This document shows positions 57,744 through 63,684 of a stretch of 64,000 nucleotides of DNA, in pieces. The stretch spans positions 96,001 through 160,000 of the forward strand of contig JBMFIG010000001.1 in NCBI GenBank assembly GCA_049976425.1, written 5' to 3'. The notes beneath the pieces were generated by a model. It was not told the DNA's origin, made no database searches, and saw nothing but the letters and a program-made list of their open reading frames with translations. A program made the translations under genes and the position numbers. Source of the DNA: Thermoproteus sp. (GTDB lineage Archaea; Thermoproteota; Thermoprotei; Thermoproteales; Thermoproteaceae). The first letter of the stretch is position 1. Every line of letters begins with the position of its first letter.

Positions 57744-59522
57744 GTGGCCGGCCTTGTCGGTGTGGCCAAGGCGTTGGCCGCGTCGGCTGTCTTGGTCCTC
57801 CTCGCGGCGTTGGCTGTCTTGTCGGGCTCGGCGGCGCCGGGGATCTCCGTGGCGACTTGCCTAGACGGAAGCCCCGTCCCAGCCTTCGTCCAAGCCTTCG
57901 CGGCTCTGCCGCCAGGCCACCGCAGAGCTCTCGTCGAGATATGGAACAGCACGGCGAAATACGGCACAGCCAAGATACCGCTCGCCGCCCTCGCAGACAT
58001 AGCAAGAGAATGGGCTGAGAAAGGATACGGCCAAAACGGAGTAGGCCTAGAAATAATCGCGACTTATGTTAACGGAAATAAGACATATTATGAAATGTTA
58101 TTTATCACATATAAGCCTAAAGATCTGATAGATACGCTGGAGAATCCGTTGCTGGCCGCCTCGAGGCTGAACTACGCTACGGTGAGACTAGATCTCGAGA
58201 TCAGTGCGCCTATAACGAGCGGCGCGGCGCATCCACGGCCGGCGTCCACTGCTACGAATGCCCAAGCGCCAACTCCCCCGGCGCCGCCCGGCTGTTGGTG
58301 GGAGCTGATCGGCTCCTCGCAGACGCAACAGACGCAGATACCCATAACTTGGATATTCGATACATCTAGCCTGAGCGGAGTCCTAGGCGCCTACATCCAA
58401 CAGACGACCTCTTCGGCGGCGATAGGCTTCCTGGCCTCCGCCGGCTTCAAATCCGGGGCTTCGGCGACTGTCAACTACCGCTTTATAGGCGCCTCGGCGC
58501 AGATAGGCGGGGCCTATCTTGAGGCGGCCTCAGTGGGACCTGCCTACGGCAACGACGGCGCCTATATATACCAGATAGGCACCATCGGGCTCGCCGAGTT
58601 TCAGCTCTACTGCGGGACCTACGACAGACCGCAGCCGCAGGATCAATACGCATACCAGGCGTTCATAGACGCCGTAGCCGGCAATCTGTACGTCTCGTAC
58701 GACTTGAGCTATATATCAAGTATATTGGCTCAATATAACTACACAGGCTCGTCGATCTTGTACGTGCCGTTTGACGAGGCGTATGCGTCCGGTGGCGGAC
58801 CCGGCTACGGATATCCGTTCTTGCCCATACAGTCCTACGACCAACCCTTCGGATTGATCGGGACGATACCTGTAGGCGCTATAGCGGCGAGGCTCATCGG
58901 GGTGCCAGAAGGCTGGCCTGCCTACCTTCTGCTCAACCTGGTTGCGGGAGTGCAAGCGTCGAGCACGCAAGTGAGCATAATAGAGCTGGGGCTCAGCTCC
59001 TCAACGCCGGCGTATGCTGACGTGTTCGCGGCCGCAGTCCCGGCGGCGTATGCCGGCTCCTCGGGCTATTCTTACTTCCCTTATATACTGGGCTTCAACA
59101 TAACGCCGCCCGGGCACTACTACTCGCCCACGTCCATATACCTAGATGGGCCGGGAAGCGTCTACGGCTGTACCGCGGGCGGAAGTAACGGCTACTACAC
59201 CTACACCGCCTACGTCCAGATAGGCAACACGCCTCTGCTTGTGCCCGGAGGGACCGTCTACGCATACCTCTACGGCCCAGACGGAAAATTAGTCTGGAGC
59301 GGACAAGTGACTCTGCCCAGTAGCGACTACGGAGTAGTTAACAGCACCCCGACGCACCAGCCCGCCGTCATAGATATCCCGAGCTACGTCTTCAGCTACA
59401 GCCCGTTCGGCACGTCCTACACCCTATACGTATACTACGGAGGCTACACGACGCCCTACGGAACGATAACCTACAGCTCATCGTCTGCTCAAATAACTAT
59501 ATACGCCGTGTATAGGTGTTAA
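57744..59522 (+). CDS. Large secreted hypothetical protein (Tyr/Ser/Gly/Thr-rich)
   Basis: Signal peptide, Pro-rich linker, no C-terminal TM. Confidence 0.7.
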   Translation: MAGLVGVAKALAASAVLVLLAALAVLSGSAAPGISVATCLDGSPVPAFVQAFAALPPGHRRALVEIWNSTAKYGTAKIPLAALADIAREWAEKGYGQNGVGLEIIATYVNGNKTYYEMLFITYKPKDLIDTLENPLLAASRLNYATVRLDLEISAPITSGAAHPRPASTATNAQAPTPPAPPGCWWELIGSSQTQQTQIPITWIFDTSSLSGVLGAYIQQTTSSAAIGFLASAGFKSGASATVNYRFIGASAQIGGAYLEAASVGPAYGNDGAYIYQIGTIGLAEFQLYCGTYDRPQPQDQYAYQAFIDAVAGNLYVSYDLSYISSILAQYNYTGSSILYVPFDEAYASGGGPGYGYPFLPIQSYDQPFGLIGTIPVGAIAARLIGVPEGWPAYLLLNLVAGVQASSTQVSIIELGLSSSTPAYADVFAAAVPAAYAGSSGYSYFPYILGFNITPPGHYYSPTSIYLDGPGSVYGCTAGGSNGYYTYTAYVQIGNTPLLVPGGTVYAYLYGPDGKLVWSGQVTLPSSDYGVVNSTPTHQPAVIDIPSYVFSYSPFGTSYTLYVYYGGYTTPYGTITYSSSSAQITIYAVYRC

Positions 59523-59644: not shown

Positions 59645-60478
59645 GTGGATCTGAGACAGCTGTTTGCCGACGCTAGGCGTAAGTTCGAGGAGGGGGGTCT
59701 GGTCTTGGACGTGGAGGAGGACAAGTTGGTGATAGTCGGCGATCTCCACGGCGATAAGGAGACCTTGGACTTGGTCTTGAAGAGGTGGGATGGCGGGAAG
59801 TTCCTCTTTCTGGGCGACTATGTGGATAGGGGGGACAAGGGCCTCGAGGTCTTGACCACCGTGGTCAGGCTGTATCTGGAGGGGAAGGCCTACGTGCTGA
59901 GGGGCAACCACGAGTCGCCGTTGATGAACGAGGACGGCGGCTTCATGGAGGAGCTCTGTCTGTACAAGAGGATACCGAACTGCGGCGAGCTCTACGGCGA
60001 TATAGAGAGGATGTTCGCGGCGATGCCCGTGGCGGCTAGGATCAACGGCGCTGTCTTGGCGGTGCACGGCGGGATACCGCTCAAGGAGCCCTCCATGGAG
60101 CCCGCGTCGATAGCGGAGCTGGCGAAGCCCAGCGGCGACCTGGTGTTGCCGGAGGATCCCCTCGTCTATCAAGCCCTCTGGAACGACCCGTGCGACTGCG
60201 AGGCCCACGCCCCGAGCCCCCGCGGGCCCGGCATATGGCTCTACGGCAGAGGCCCGACGGAGAGGTTCCTCAAGGGGGAGGGCCTCAAGGCGATCGTCAG
60301 GGGGCATCTGTACGTCAGCGCCGGGTACGTGAGCCACCACGGGGTTGTCCACACGGTCTTCACGAGCCGGGCCGGGCCCTATAAGGCCGTGAGGCCCAAG
60401 GTGGCGGTGCTCGACGGCGGCGAGCTCCAGATCTACGACTTGTTGAGCAACGAGGCGATCCGCAGAGTCGAGATCTAG
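59645..60478 (+). CDS. PPP-family Ser/Thr protein phosphatase
   Basis: GDLHG, GDYVDRG, RGNHE, HGG, LWNDP, RGH. Confidence 0.92.
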   Translation: MDLRQLFADARRKFEEGGLVLDVEEDKLVIVGDLHGDKETLDLVLKRWDGGKFLFLGDYVDRGDKGLEVLTTVVRLYLEGKAYVLRGNHESPLMNEDGGFMEELCLYKRIPNCGELYGDIERMFAAMPVAARINGAVLAVHGGIPLKEPSMEPASIAELAKPSGDLVLPEDPLVYQALWNDPCDCEAHAPSPRGPGIWLYGRGPTERFLKGEGLKAIVRGHLYVSAGYVSHHGVVHTVFTSRAGPYKAVRPKVAVLDGGELQIYDLLSNEAIRRVEI

Positions 60479-60494: not shown

Positions 60495-60539
60495 TCGCCA
60501 CGGGGGCATTGATCGGCCCCCGAGAGGCCGTCCCCCGAC

Positions 60540-60846
60540 GGAGCACCCATAAGCCGCCGGGCAGGCGTTCGAGGGGACCCGGGACTGAGGACCCTCTCGG
60601 CGGGTTGCGCGGGTAGGCGCGCGCCGGTAGGACGGGGGTGGCAGTGGGCTGGGCGGCCGCCGCCCGCCCCTCCGAAAGGAGCCCCAGGTCTGGGGGGCCC
60701 GCAACCCCGCCGGGCCGGCCGTAGCCCCCGCGCGGCTCTCCGGGAGGCCGTGACGTCCCGGCCCTCGGGGCTTGCCAAGCCGGCGTGCCCAAGCCGTAGG
60801 GCTTGGAGGCGCCGGCGAAGGCGGCGAACCTGGGGAGGTCCGGGAG
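60540..60846 (+). ncRNA. ffs: Circularly permuted archaeal SRP (7S) RNA
   Basis: Helix 6 CCAAGCC-GTAG-GGCTTGG (60789-60806); long-range pairs 60560-60585 with 60755-60776; helix 8 split, with the 5' half (GAACCTGGGGAGGTCCGGGAG) at the gene end and the 3' half (GGAGCACCCA) at the gene start. Confidence 0.9.
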
Positions 60847-60855
60847 CGCCGGATC

Positions 60856-60904
60856 GTGATGACGTCCGATATGAGGACTAGATGAGCTGGCCGTCCCAGA
60901 CTGA
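60856..60904 (+). ncRNA. Box C/D guide sRNA candidate
   Basis: Box C GTGATGA 60856-60862, internal D'/C'-like CTAGA-TGAG, box D CTGA 60901-60904; about 50 nt long. Confidence 0.7.
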
Positions 60905-60921
60905 CGTCGGTCAAAAAGGCG

Positions 60922-63684
60922 TTATTCCCTATCGGCCTTAGCCTTGCCGCCGCTCAGTATCCTCGCTTGGGCCGCCGCGAGCCTCGCCAGAGGCACTCTG
61001 AACGGCGAGGCGCTGACGTAGTCCACCGCAGTCTTTTCGAAGAAGTATATGGACTTGGGATCGCCGCCGTGCTCGCCGCATACGCCGACCTCTATCTTGG
61101 GGTTCACCTCCTTGGCGGTCCGCGCGGCCAGCTCCACCAGCTTGCCGACGCCTGCGACGTCCAGCGTCTCGAAAGGATCGGCGTCGAGTATCTTGAGCTC
61201 TAGATACTGCGGTATGAACTTGTTCTCGGCGTCGTCTCTGCTGAAGCTGAAGACGGCCTGGGTCAGGTCGTTGGTCCCAAAGCTTATGAAGTCGACCTCT
61301 CTGGCTATCTGGTCCATGGTGAGGGCGGCCCTTACGGTCTCCACCATAGTGCCTATCTTGACCTCCAGCCTCACGCCGGTCTCCCTCTCCACGTCGCGCA
61401 GCGCGGGGAGTATGCCCTTCTCCTTGACGTATCTTATCTCCCTCACGTCGCTTACCTGCGGTATCATTATCTCCACCACCGGGTTGCGCCCCTCCTTCTT
61501 GAGCTCGGCGGCGGCCTCGGCTATGGCTCTGGAGAGGTAGTAGTAGAACTCGGGGTAGGTCACGCCGACGCGCACGCCGCGGTGGCCCAGCATCGGGTTG
61601 GCCTCCTGCAACGCCTTGACTCTGGCGTAGAGCCACTCCAGCTCCTTCGCGTCCTTGCCGGCGGCCTTGGCCTCGTATATCTGTTGCAGGACCTCCTCGG
61701 GCTTCGGCAAGAATTCGTGGAGCGGCGGGTCTATCAACCTGACGATGACGGGCAACCCGTCCATGATCTTGAAGATCTCCTTGAAGTCCTCCTTCAGCAT
61801 CCTGTATAGCGGCTCTAGGTGTTTGACCCTCTCCTCGCGGGTCTCGGCCAGTATCACTTTGCGCAGTAGCTCGAGCCTCTCCGGCTTCCTGAACATCCGC
61901 TCTATTCTCAAAAGCCCTATGCCTCTAGCGCCGAACTTCCTGGCCAGGGCGGCGTCCTCGGGCAGATCGGCGTTGGCCCTCACGCCGAGCCTCCTGACCT
62001 CGTCGGCCCATCCCAACAGCTCCTCCAGCTCCGGTATCAGCTCGGGCTCCACCGTGGGCACCACCCCGGCGTAGACGTTGCCCGTATTGCCGTCTATGGT
62101 GACCCAGTCGCCTTCCTTGAACACCTGCCCGTTGACGCTCATGGTCTTGGCCGCCTCGTCGATTGTCAAGGCCTCGGCGCCGACCACTGCCGGCTTGCCG
62201 ATGGCTCTGGCCACGACGGCGGCGTGGGAGGTCATCCCTCCTCTGCTCGTCAAGATGCCGACAGCTGCGTAGAAGCCGTGGACGTCGTCCGGCTTGGTCT
62301 CCACTCTGGCCAAGATCACCTTCTTGCCCTCGCGCGCCCACCTCACGGCGTCGTCCGGGTGGAACACCAGCTGGCCCGACACGGCGCCGGGGCTCGCGGG
62401 GAGGCCTTTGGCTATCGGCTGGGCTTTGGCCTTGGGATCTATACGCGGGTACAGTAGCTGGAGGACGTGGTCGGGCGATACCTTCAATAAGGCCTCCTCC
62501 TTGGTGATGATGCCTTCCTTGGCCATATCGACCGCCGTCTTGACTCTGGCCAGCGGGGTCATTTTCGCGTTGCGGCACTGGAGGAAGTAGAGCTTGCCTC
62601 TCTCCACGGTGAACTCGACGTCTTGTACGTCCTTGTTGGCTTTCTCCAACAACTTCACGCCCTTGTACAGCTCGTCGTATAGGTGCGGGAACCTCTTCCT
62701 GAACTCCTCTATGTCCATCGGGGTCCTTATGCCGGCGACCACGTCCTCGCCTTGGGCAACGGGGAGGAACTCGCCGTAGAGCTTGTTCTCGCCGGTGGCC
62801 ACATCGCGCGAGAACACGACGCCCGTGCCGGAGTCCCAGCCCATGTTGCCGAAGACCATAGTCACCACGTTGACCGCGGTGCAGTCTGCCACGTCGGGCG
62901 TTATCTTCTCGGCGACTCTGTAGAATATGGCGCGGGGGCTGTCCCAGGAGCGGAAGACTGCCTTTATGGCCAGCTTGAGCTGTTCCCAGGGATCCTGCGG
63001 AAACTCGCCGTAATGTCTCCTTATTATCTCCTTGAACCGTTCGACGGCCTCTTTCAAGCCCTCTAGAGGTACGTCGGGGTCCTCCTTGGCGTTGTACTTC
63101 TTCTTTATCTCCTCCCAAGCCGAGGAGAACAGCTTGTCGTCGATGCCCAGAACTATTCTGCCGAACATGTTGACGAAACGCCTATAGGCGTCGTACGCGA
63201 ACCACTCGTTGCCGGTCTGTTTGGCCAGACCCTTGACGGTCTGGTCGTTGAGGCCCAGGTTGAGCACGGTGTCCATCATGCCGGGCATGGAGACCGCTGC
63301 GCCGGAGCGCACCGAGACCAGCAACGGGTTCTCCGGATCGCCGAACTTCCTGCCCACCTTCTCCTCGAGACGTCTCATGTGTTGCAGGACCTCCTCCCAG
63401 AGGCCTTGCGGCAGGTCCAGGCCGTTAATCAACGCGAAGAGCTTGCCTATCGCCTGGTCCCTTACCTCGGGAGGAGGCTGTTTTTCGAGGAGCGCCTCCA
63501 GCTCGGCTATCTCGGCCCTCCTAGGCGCGAAGAAGTCCTTACAAGCCTCCGTAGTTATTATAAAGCCTGGGGGGACCCTCAGCCCGAGCTGCGTCATCTG
63601 TATTAAGCTGGCCCCCTTGCCGCCGAAGAGCTTCTTATTCCTGTAATCGGCCTCTTCAAAGTCGTAAACGTACTTTTTAGGCAT
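60922..63684 (-). CDS. ppdK: Pyruvate, phosphate dikinase
   Basis: GGKGA, LLVSVRSGA, GEDVVAG, GGMTSHAAVVAR, NPMLGHRG, FGTNDLTQ, CGEHGG. Confidence 0.97.
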   Translation of the reverse strand: MPKKYVYDFEEADYRNKKLFGGKGASLIQMTQLGLRVPPGFIITTEACKDFFAPRRAEIAELEALLEKQPPPEVRDQAIGKLFALINGLDLPQGLWEEVLQHMRRLEEKVGRKFGDPENPLLVSVRSGAAVSMPGMMDTVLNLGLNDQTVKGLAKQTGNEWFAYDAYRRFVNMFGRIVLGIDDKLFSSAWEEIKKKYNAKEDPDVPLEGLKEAVERFKEIIRRHYGEFPQDPWEQLKLAIKAVFRSWDSPRAIFYRVAEKITPDVADCTAVNVVTMVFGNMGWDSGTGVVFSRDVATGENKLYGEFLPVAQGEDVVAGIRTPMDIEEFRKRFPHLYDELYKGVKLLEKANKDVQDVEFTVERGKLYFLQCRNAKMTPLARVKTAVDMAKEGIITKEEALLKVSPDHVLQLLYPRIDPKAKAQPIAKGLPASPGAVSGQLVFHPDDAVRWAREGKKVILARVETKPDDVHGFYAAVGILTSRGGMTSHAAVVARAIGKPAVVGAEALTIDEAAKTMSVNGQVFKEGDWVTIDGNTGNVYAGVVPTVEPELIPELEELLGWADEVRRLGVRANADLPEDAALARKFGARGIGLLRIERMFRKPERLELLRKVILAETREERVKHLEPLYRMLKEDFKEIFKIMDGLPVIVRLIDPPLHEFLPKPEEVLQQIYEAKAAGKDAKELEWLYARVKALQEANPMLGHRGVRVGVTYPEFYYYLSRAIAEAAAELKKEGRNPVVEIMIPQVSDVREIRYVKEKGILPALRDVERETGVRLEVKIGTMVETVRAALTMDQIAREVDFISFGTNDLTQAVFSFSRDDAENKFIPQYLELKILDADPFETLDVAGVGKLVELAARTAKEVNPKIEVGVCGEHGGDPKSIYFFEKTAVDYVSASPFRVPLARLAAAQARILSGGKAKADRE

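Follow-up and report, generated by a model that had tools for sequence, protein, structure and literature searches.

A circularly permuted signal recognition particle RNA gene in a further Thermoproteus species and its proposed closure to a 307-nt circle

Locus and features

The window analysed here is a 64,000-nt stretch of a Thermoproteus genome (G000; 1.84 Mb in 96 contigs, 99.4% complete), and all positions are those of the window. It was compared with a panel of one genome per species (numbered G0xx), which included two sister genera, g2 and g3. An intergenic region, flanked upstream by the gene of a 277-aa phosphatase and downstream by that of a 920-aa pyruvate phosphate dikinase (ppdK), carries a gene for the RNA of the signal recognition particle (SRP). 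It is highly probable that positions 60540-60846 (+) represent the only SRP RNA of this organism, that its gene is circularly permuted and that the RNA is closed to a circle of 307 nt. The locus is the ortholog, in a further species, of the permuted SRP RNA genes of T. tenax and T. uzoniensis. The central finding has been in the literature since 2015 for these two Thermoproteus species (Plagens, Daume, Wiegel, Randau, eLife 2015; PMC4731332). The features of the locus are as follows.

59645-60478 (+): calcineurin-like metallophosphatase, upstream neighbour and counterpart of T. tenax 'ppa' (Pfam PF00149, E 8.4e-23; synteny as in PMC4731332)
60489-60494 (+): TATA box TTAATA, the hexamer of T. 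tenax and T. uzoniensis, with a putative function by homology
60516-60539 (+): discarded leader of the precursor, about 24 nt, placed by alignment to an ortholog with a 309-nt RNA; the transcription start site (TSS) presumably lies near 60516
60519-60525 (+): distal CCCG (60519-22) and AGA (60523-25), with a hypothetical role as an alternative register pairing with C60841-G60844 (leader conservation, folds)
60534-60537 (+): proximal CCCG, 5' strand of the central 4-bp helix of a bulge-helix-bulge or bulge-helix-loop (BHB/BHL) motif (sequence; invariant in 8/8 leaders)
60538-60540 (+): 5' bulge ACG, with the cut after C60539 and G60540 as first mature nucleotide (sequence; the RNA joint ends at 60540)
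60540-60846 (+): mature SRP RNA, 307 nt, circle via the G60846-G60540 joint (RNA joint, profile hidden Markov model (HMM), consensus fold, junction 20-mer)
60540-60558 (+): 3' strand of helix 8, including AGCA of the symmetric loop, the SRP54 site (profile HMM; alignment columns 1-19 pair with 286-307)
60559-60637 (+): 3' strand of helix 5 (consensus fold, columns 20-99 pair with 167-243)
60620-60638 (+): continuous 19-nt segment at the position of the canonical 5' and 3' ends, helix 1 being absent (the nhmmer alignment stops at 60619 and resumes at 60639)
60644-60702 (+): Alu-domain hairpins, a cluster of three (consensus fold, columns 106-164; aligns to the 5' domain of canonical SRP RNAs)
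60705-60777 (+): 5' strand of helix 5 (consensus fold and pair counts)
60779-60816 (+): helix 6 with the GNAR tetraloop GUAG at 60796-60799, the SRP19 site (partial Rfam match to helix 6 of the model; helix 10 in the pair count)
60820-60846 (+): 5' strand of helix 8, comprising AGG of the symmetric loop, the UCC stem, the tetraloop GGGA (60842-60845) and G60846 (sequence, profile HMM, 20-mer)
60841-60844 (+): CGGG, 3' strand of the central 4-bp precursor helix (sequence)
60845-60847 (+): 3' bulge or loop AGC, with the cut after G60846 (sequence; the RNA joint leaves from 60846)
60847-60855 (+): trailer between the SRP RNA and the C box (sequence, constrained folds)
60856-60904 (+): gene of a C/D box small RNA (sRNA), with the C box GUGAUGA at 60856-62 and the D box CUGA at 60901-04 (boxes in the sequence; Rfam sR22, 14.4 bits, and sR11, 12.9 bits, both below threshold)
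60922-63684 (-): ppdK, downstream neighbour (Pfam PF02896, PF01326, PF00391; synteny as in PMC4731332)

Permutation of helix 8 and the circular joint

Read in genomic order, the gene comprises the 3' strand of helix 8, the 3' strand of helix 5, the Alu domain (without helix 1), the 5' strand of helix 5, helix 6 and the 5' strand of helix 8, and the canonical 5' and 3' ends are bridged by the continuous 19 nt at 60620-60638. Rejoining the two termini yields ...GGGGAGGUCC-GGGA-G|GGAGCACCC..., the letters flanking the joint G60846|G60540 reading ...GGUCCGGGAG|GGAGCACCC. Helix 8 then shows the symmetric loop AGG/AGCA and a GNRA tetraloop, and its tip is identical over 20 nt to that of canonical relatives. 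The GNAR tetraloop of helix 6 is likewise present as GUAG at 60796-99, where it aligns to the helix 6 loop of RF01857.

A profile HMM of 318 positions was built for nhmmer from five full-length colinear SRP RNAs, four from g2 and one from g3, and was compared with the locus in genomic order and with the circle joined in silico. The genomic order gave two matches, HMM positions 3-213 on 60639-60846 (25.1 bits) and 212-293 on 60538-60619 (3.4 bits), which break at HMM position 213/214, corresponding to 60846 and 60540. The closed circle gave a single match running through the joint (HMM 3-292 of 318, 50.2 bits, E 4.8e-17). The 20-mer across the joint was found to be contiguous in the DNA of 18 of the 19 loci with a canonical match (all 18 of g2, not the single g3 locus) and in none of the eight loci of the window's genus. 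An earlier note on this DNA, made from the sequence alone, had proposed that helix 8 is split with its halves at opposite ends of the gene, that the rejoined sequence matches the canonical helix 8 and that a 307-nt circle results. The first proposal is borne out by the HMM break at 60846/60540 and by a pairing of the gene ends in 7/7 orthologs, the second by the 20-mer in 18/19 sister-genus loci; cuts after the second bulge nucleotide leave exactly 60540-60846. The short elements that the note had placed at the gene ends (CCCG at 60534-60537, ACG at 60538-60540, CGGG at 60841-60844 and AGC at 60845-60847) were all confirmed.

Seven full-length orthologs of 304-309 nt, with 88% mean column identity, were folded together with RNAalifold. 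The consensus was an SRP-like rod with an end-to-end helix 8, a long helix 5, helix 6 with its GUAG loop and the Alu hairpin cluster, and contained 114 pairs, 21 of them with compensatory changes. Paired cells amounted to 96.0%, compared with 41-52% when the partners were slid by 1-3 columns, pairs changed on both sides numbered 21 compared with 3-7 in the slid versions, and the observed values were reached by 0 of 500 shuffles, in a comparison that is favoured by the derivation of the consensus structure from those same seven sequences. The end-to-end helix was kept in 7/7 orthologs, and two of its eight pairs covary. Among the orthologs, that of G026 was 97% identical to the window over a 441-nt query and the 309-nt ortholog of G025 showed 82% identity.

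The joint itself was observed in RNA. The metatranscriptome runs X7, X11 and X5, with RNA from relatives of the organism, and the DNA run X1 were compared with the window as assembled contigs, not as raw reads. A 253-nt contig of the hot-spring RNA run X7 reads 60723-60846 and then 60540-60668, i.e. it passes from 60846 to 60540 and goes back 307 nt, with a side of 124 and an ambiguity of 0. Two contigs of the RNA run X11 start at 60540 with a loose end, GGGGAGGTCCGGGAG, that corresponds to 60832-60846. The DNA run X1, the only run with most of the stretch and possibly its source, showed the whole stretch in one colinear piece. The junction G60846|G60540, which the earlier note had marked as its own inference, is thus exact in the X7 contig and matched by the loose ends in X11, while the DNA is colinear. 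Within the mature RNA the RNA contigs showed 16 differences from the window, none of which disrupts an existing pair; both partners are replaced in two pairs (AU by GC, and GC by AU), and four differences fall in unpaired columns. The circular joint is therefore visible in hot-spring metatranscriptomes of uncultured relatives. One further X11 contig lacks 47 nt of the Alu hairpins (60645-60691, side 30), possibly as a strain variant or through a skip, either in reverse transcription (RT) across a stable structure or in assembly. Coverage was not used as evidence, because contig depth cannot rank the parts of a gene and holes prove nothing; X7, X11 and X5 lacked the trailer and C/D box sRNA bins from 60858 on, and the leader bins of X11 were far shallower.

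Neither RF01857 nor any other Rfam family matched the 64-kb window at gathering score. A permissive scan with RF01857 gave a sole weak local match at 60756-60845 (19.2 bits, E 0.025; cut-off 96.5 bits), in which helix 6 aligned well and a deletion of 45 positions fell exactly at the place of helix 8. In genomic order the locus thus stays below the gathering threshold of 96.5 bits, and the colinear SRP RNAs of g2 score 70-98 bits. No canonical SRP RNA gene was found elsewhere in the 99.4%-complete genome, where RF01857 gave no other match at E<=10. The earlier note had looked to a conventional SRP RNA gene elsewhere as evidence to the contrary; the only RF01857 match in the genome was this locus. 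Its remark that annotation pipelines can miss the gene agrees with the lack of any Rfam match above threshold. Among the 18 colinear SRP RNAs of g2, 11 match RF01857 over the S domain only (model about 99-273, 70-81 bits; L025-L031, L034-L036 and L038), and one reaches the gathering score, so that Rfam-based annotation may truncate or miss these genes too.

RF01857 matched at E<=1e-3 in 48 of the 62 genomes of the order. All 18 genomes of g2 were among them and none of the nine of the window's genus, where the best score was 24 bits; the other genomes with no match, outside this genus, were all less than 90% complete, and each of the remaining eight genera of the order had at least one genome with a colinear-type SRP match. 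In a DNA search of 29 genomes of the family, including G000, the locus was found in eight of the nine genomes of the genus. The single genome that lacked it is a 76%-complete assembly, and one other copy was cut by a contig end. Because the locus occurs in 8/9 genomes and a canonical gene in 0/9, the permutation is a trait of the whole genus as sampled. This adds to Plagens et al., whose wording was 'few species', the presence of the locus in all eight genomes of the genus in which it is assembled. When 185,579 species, each represented by one genome, were scanned with a pattern, 75 matches resulted, four of which had the leader context and were the SRP locus, all in Thermoproteus or Thermoproteaceae records; the other 71 lacked this context and were rejected as unrelated chance matches. 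The scan is not a census, because several congeners with the locus were not among its matches. No later primary report on permuted or circular archaeal SRP RNA was found in the literature beyond the 2015 paper.

One genome of another genus, G031 (95% complete, SRP match of 32.8 bits), was considered as a further helix 8 permutation and was ruled out, its helix 8 being intact. The match (L132, 796-887 (-)) comprises helix 6 and the intact helix 8 only; the remainder, which the model does not recognise, may have diverged, be interrupted or lie rearranged at another place. The same locus carries a C/D box sRNA (sR2-like, 31.1 bits) about 200 nt away and a hairpin resembling a tRNA T-arm at 590-622.

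Cutting motif, leader and alternative explanations

In the archaeal BHB, each strand has a 4-nt helix followed by a bulge of 3 nt, which is cut after its second nucleotide. Both cut positions of the SRP RNA precursor fit this rule, and the cuts after C60539 and G60846 produce the ends seen in the RNA of relatives. A BHB as defined by Plagens et al. (4-bp helix, at least one 3-nt bulge) is present in the pairing CCCG/CGGG with a clean 5' bulge; the strict helix-flanked form (hBHBh') is only partly realized, since the 3' cut site lies in a looser loop. The 4-bp pairing alone is unremarkable in such GC-rich DNA. The proximal CCCG just upstream of the mature 5' end is, however, conserved in all eight orthologous leaders, which together with the RNA joint places the motif above chance. 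In the folds the motif of G000 appears relaxed and BHL-like, with the 5' cut in a clean bulge and the 3' cut in the looser loop, because the predicted outer leader:trailer helix is weak; the wording 'BHB/BHL-type' of the earlier note was therefore of the right strength. By the same constrained folds, the species of the genus differ in how well the BHB is formed, from textbook to loop-like: for G019 a textbook hBHBh' is predicted, whose outer helix has 7 bp and which lies 1.1 kcal/mol above the minimum free energy (MFE) of that precursor, and for G025, G022, G024 and G021 interrupted outer helices. When just the ends of leader and trailer were cofolded as two short strands, the registers disagreed, and these cofolds were discarded for the constrained folds of full precursors. 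The heterotetrameric endonuclease family of these organisms is described as the most relaxed in substrate choice (PMC4731332).

Besides the SRP proteins SRP54 (446 aa) and SRP19 (97 aa), the genome encodes a catalytic subunit of the splicing endonuclease (182 aa) and RtcB (504 aa). Transcription of the precursor would be directed by the TTAATA box and begin near 60516, and would probably extend into the neighbouring C/D box sRNA. The leader CCCG of the precursor would pair with C60841-G60844 and put both cut sites in a bulge-helix-bulge/loop motif, the tRNA splicing endonuclease would cut after C60539 and after G60846, and RtcB would ligate G60846 to G60540. The resulting 307-nt circle would offer an intact helix 8 (GGGA tetraloop, AGG/AGCA loop) to SRP54, beside helix 6 (GUAG) for SRP19. 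For this organism, we infer the TSS, the acting enzymes and the binding of SRP19 and SRP54.

Several observations weigh against this pathway or against the joint as a property of this very genome. When the precursors of G000 and G026 were constrained to the proximal register, the fold had 0 leader:trailer pairs and lay 6.6 kcal/mol above the MFE, and the MFE structures of both precursors use the distal leader CCCG instead. The central helix (H) shows no covariation, because both of its strands are invariant. A search with PF01974 found one endonuclease subunit, the structural subunit not having been searched for separately. The RNA evidence comes entirely from other organisms and consists of assembled contigs rather than raw reads; the X7 contig with the joint derives from a relative that is 90-95% like the window, and for X11 the share of contigs at >=99% (17 of 69) is a figure for the run as a whole and not specific to the two junction contigs. 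X7 and X11 come from two studies that share year and habitat, possibly as parts of one campaign.

The distal CCCG is part of a 12-nt leader element, CCCCGAGAGGCC (60519-60530), that is kept in 7/8 species although the leader is discarded. The element contains this second CCCG (60519-22) followed by AGA and then GGCC, and it can base-pair with GGUC-CGGG (60837-44) at the 3' terminus of the mature sequence, leaving a bulge of 3 nt. Cutting in the distal register by the BHB rule would leave A60525 as the 5' end and hence a circle with a 15-nt insert. Maturation might accordingly take place in two steps, a possibility that is put forward here tentatively and to which we give less credence than to a single step: a first BHB cut in the distal register, after G60846 and G60524, would give a circle with the insert 60525-60539, which would then be removed like an intron via the proximal CCCG. 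Such a path would refine how the ends arise and leaves the 307-nt circle intact. It is suggested by the occurrence of the distal motif CCCG-RGA-GRYC in 7/8 orthologous leaders (6/7 of those scored in the pairing analysis) and by the inner GGCC of G025, which reads GAUC with both substitutions keeping the pairing, although by estimate compatible substitutions would arise by chance about once in nine cases. The distal register appears in the unconstrained MFE structures of the G000 and G026 precursors, and when imposed it was predicted to be cheaper than the proximal one in 5/6 orthologs (e.g. 2.9 compared with 6.6 kcal/mol in G000 and 1.7 compared with 4.2 in G025), the exception being G022 (distal 9.3, proximal 8.7); G019 lacks the distal motif. 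In this register there would be an inner helix of 4 bp and longer, a 3-nt bulge at the 3' cut and an outer helix of 2-3 bp from the inferred or published TSS, and the 15-nt insert with the proximal CCCG would form a small BHB/BHL intron whose removal gives the mature joint.

The RNA run X5 bears on the two-step path directly. One of its contigs, of 109 nt, reads 60774-60846, AGGCCG and 60532-60559, which is the predicted joint G60846|A60525 in a relative without T60531. The support is, however, this one contig of depth 8 in a single run; the run contains a further unusual join, in which a loose end following 60568 corresponds to helix 6; the sequences joined have 3 nt (GAG) in common, which is typical of template switching by reverse transcriptase; and all sequenced junctions of T. 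tenax are identical (PMC4731332). The X5 joint to about 60525 is thus either a processing intermediate or an artefact of RT or assembly. A two-step path would fit the suggestion of Plagens et al. that the permuted gene descends from an intron-bearing gene (PMC4731332). If maturation does proceed in two steps, the permuted gene would be an intron-containing SRP RNA gene opened within the intron, and the RNA would mature via a circular intron-bearing intermediate.

Three further explanations touch the circle or its makers. The circular RNA might be real and made by other enzymes, i.e. by another endonuclease or by exonuclease trimming and by a ligase other than RtcB. The weakness of the outer motif helix in this genome speaks in favour of this, as does the fact that the 2015 paper suggested a role of RtcB and did not test it (PMC4731332). 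We nevertheless regard it as very unlikely, given that the cuts fall after the second nucleotide of 3-nt stretches flanking a 4-bp helix on both strands, that the proximal CCCG is invariant in 8/8 discarded leaders, that the endonuclease and RtcB are both encoded, and that the T. tenax BHB (4-bp helix, 3-nt bulge) was cut in vitro by the organism's own splicing endonuclease (PMC4731332). Helix 8 can also still form from the two ends in a linear fold, and the RNA might work in this linear, permuted form, its helix 8 loop staying nicked and the joint being a minor by-product or an artefact. This is more improbable still: the linear form lacks the closed tetraloop, and the joint occurs in two RNA runs exactly where it restores the 20-nt word of 18/19 sister-genus loci. 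In T. tenax, moreover, SRP19 and SRP54 bind the open form less, and circular forms were seen on Northern blots (PMC4731332). That the locus is a dead, rearranged relic, and that the functional SRP RNA is encoded elsewhere or has diverged beyond detection, might be argued from the Rfam score of just 19.2 bits and from an assembly in 96 contigs. It can hardly be credited for a genome that is 99.4% complete with no other match at E<=10 and with intact SRP19 and SRP54, and for a locus with 21 compensatory pairs conserved in the genus that is covered by RNA contigs of relatives. A functional SRP RNA closed to a 307-nt circle by the splicing endonuclease and RtcB is the explanation that we prefer.

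The adjacent C/D box sRNA and comparison with known systems

The C/D box sRNA at 60856-60904 is probably carried on the same transcript as the SRP RNA. The 12-nt complement of its D-guide had no exact match in the genome besides the sRNA gene itself, although rRNA may be unassembled. Matches with one mismatch numbered 11 on the forward and 14 on the reverse strand, which equals the control with the reversed pattern (10 and 14), and therefore no target can be named. No convincing D' box could be placed in the sRNA. Directly downstream of the SRP RNA gene and on the same strand, the sRNA was found in G000, G026, G024 and G021. In G019 (L006) it is on the same strand and upstream, and on the opposite strand it is downstream in G022 (L007/L017) and upstream in G023 (L009/L019); no match to it was found in the G025 locus. 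The sRNA thus stays linked to the SRP RNA gene and shifts its place among congeners, which fits a remark in the 2015 paper on the possible mobility of C/D box sRNA genes (PMC4731332). The contig of the DNA run X1, the probable source run, has 7 nt fewer near 60905, just past the D box, possibly an assembly or strain difference. Elsewhere in the 64-kb window, ARAGORN found no tRNA, and a 592-aa open reading frame upstream of the phosphatase gene (57744-59522, +) gave no Pfam match at E<=1e-3.

SRP RNA is universal and essential, and in Thermoproteus it would work only after the tRNA-splicing machinery has closed the ring. Since standard annotation misses the gene, it should be annotated in this genome and in its congeners. 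What is added here to the published system is the genus-wide occurrence of the permutation, the joint in metatranscriptomes of relatives, the variable quality of the predicted BHB and the shifting C/D box sRNA. The conserved second register of the leader gives a testable clue to how the RNA matures and to a possible origin of the permutation from an intron.

In T. tenax, the SRP RNA of 309 nt is encoded between ppdK and a phosphatase gene, its termini lie at the tip of helix 8 and helix 1 is absent; the leader has 23 nt, the TTAATA box, found in T. uzoniensis as well, lies 26 nt upstream of the TSS, a C/D box sRNA adjoins the gene, and RNA sequencing showed identical circular junctions (PMC4731332). 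A similar permuted gene is present in T. uzoniensis (PMC4731332). The earlier note had itself called the locus a rediscovery of this system, and the neighbours, the TTAATA box, the leader length, the C/D box sRNA and the size of the RNA (307 compared with the published 309 nt) all agree with that view. With the T. tenax/T. uzoniensis system the locus shares the flanking ppdK and phosphatase genes, the TTAATA box, a leader of about 23-24 nt and the adjacent C/D box sRNA. Also shared with T. tenax are the termini at the tip of helix 8, the lack of helix 1, a joint by which the helix 8 loop is re-formed, and a genome that has no canonical SRP RNA gene and encodes SRP19 and SRP54. The differences from T. 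tenax concern the genome, which is that of another species (the nearest panel genome being 97% identical over 441 nt), the trailer, with the C/D box sRNA starting here 10 nt after the cut, the strict outer BHB helix, which is not predicted in the window's genome, and the RNA evidence, which comes here from environmental relatives and not from culture.

With the canonical archaeal SRP RNA (RF01857, g2), the RNA shares the Alu domain, helices 5, 6 and 8 and, once joined, the tip of helix 8, GGAGGUCCGGGAGGGAGCAC. It differs from it in a gene order rotated by about 210 of 318 profile positions and in the continuous 19 nt that replace helix 1. Permuted tRNA genes and BHB-flanked archaeal rRNA precursors likewise have a BHB formed by leader and trailer, an endonuclease and a ligase, and circular intermediates. 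In contrast to these precursors, the circle itself would here be the final functional molecule, and its cargo is the SRP RNA.

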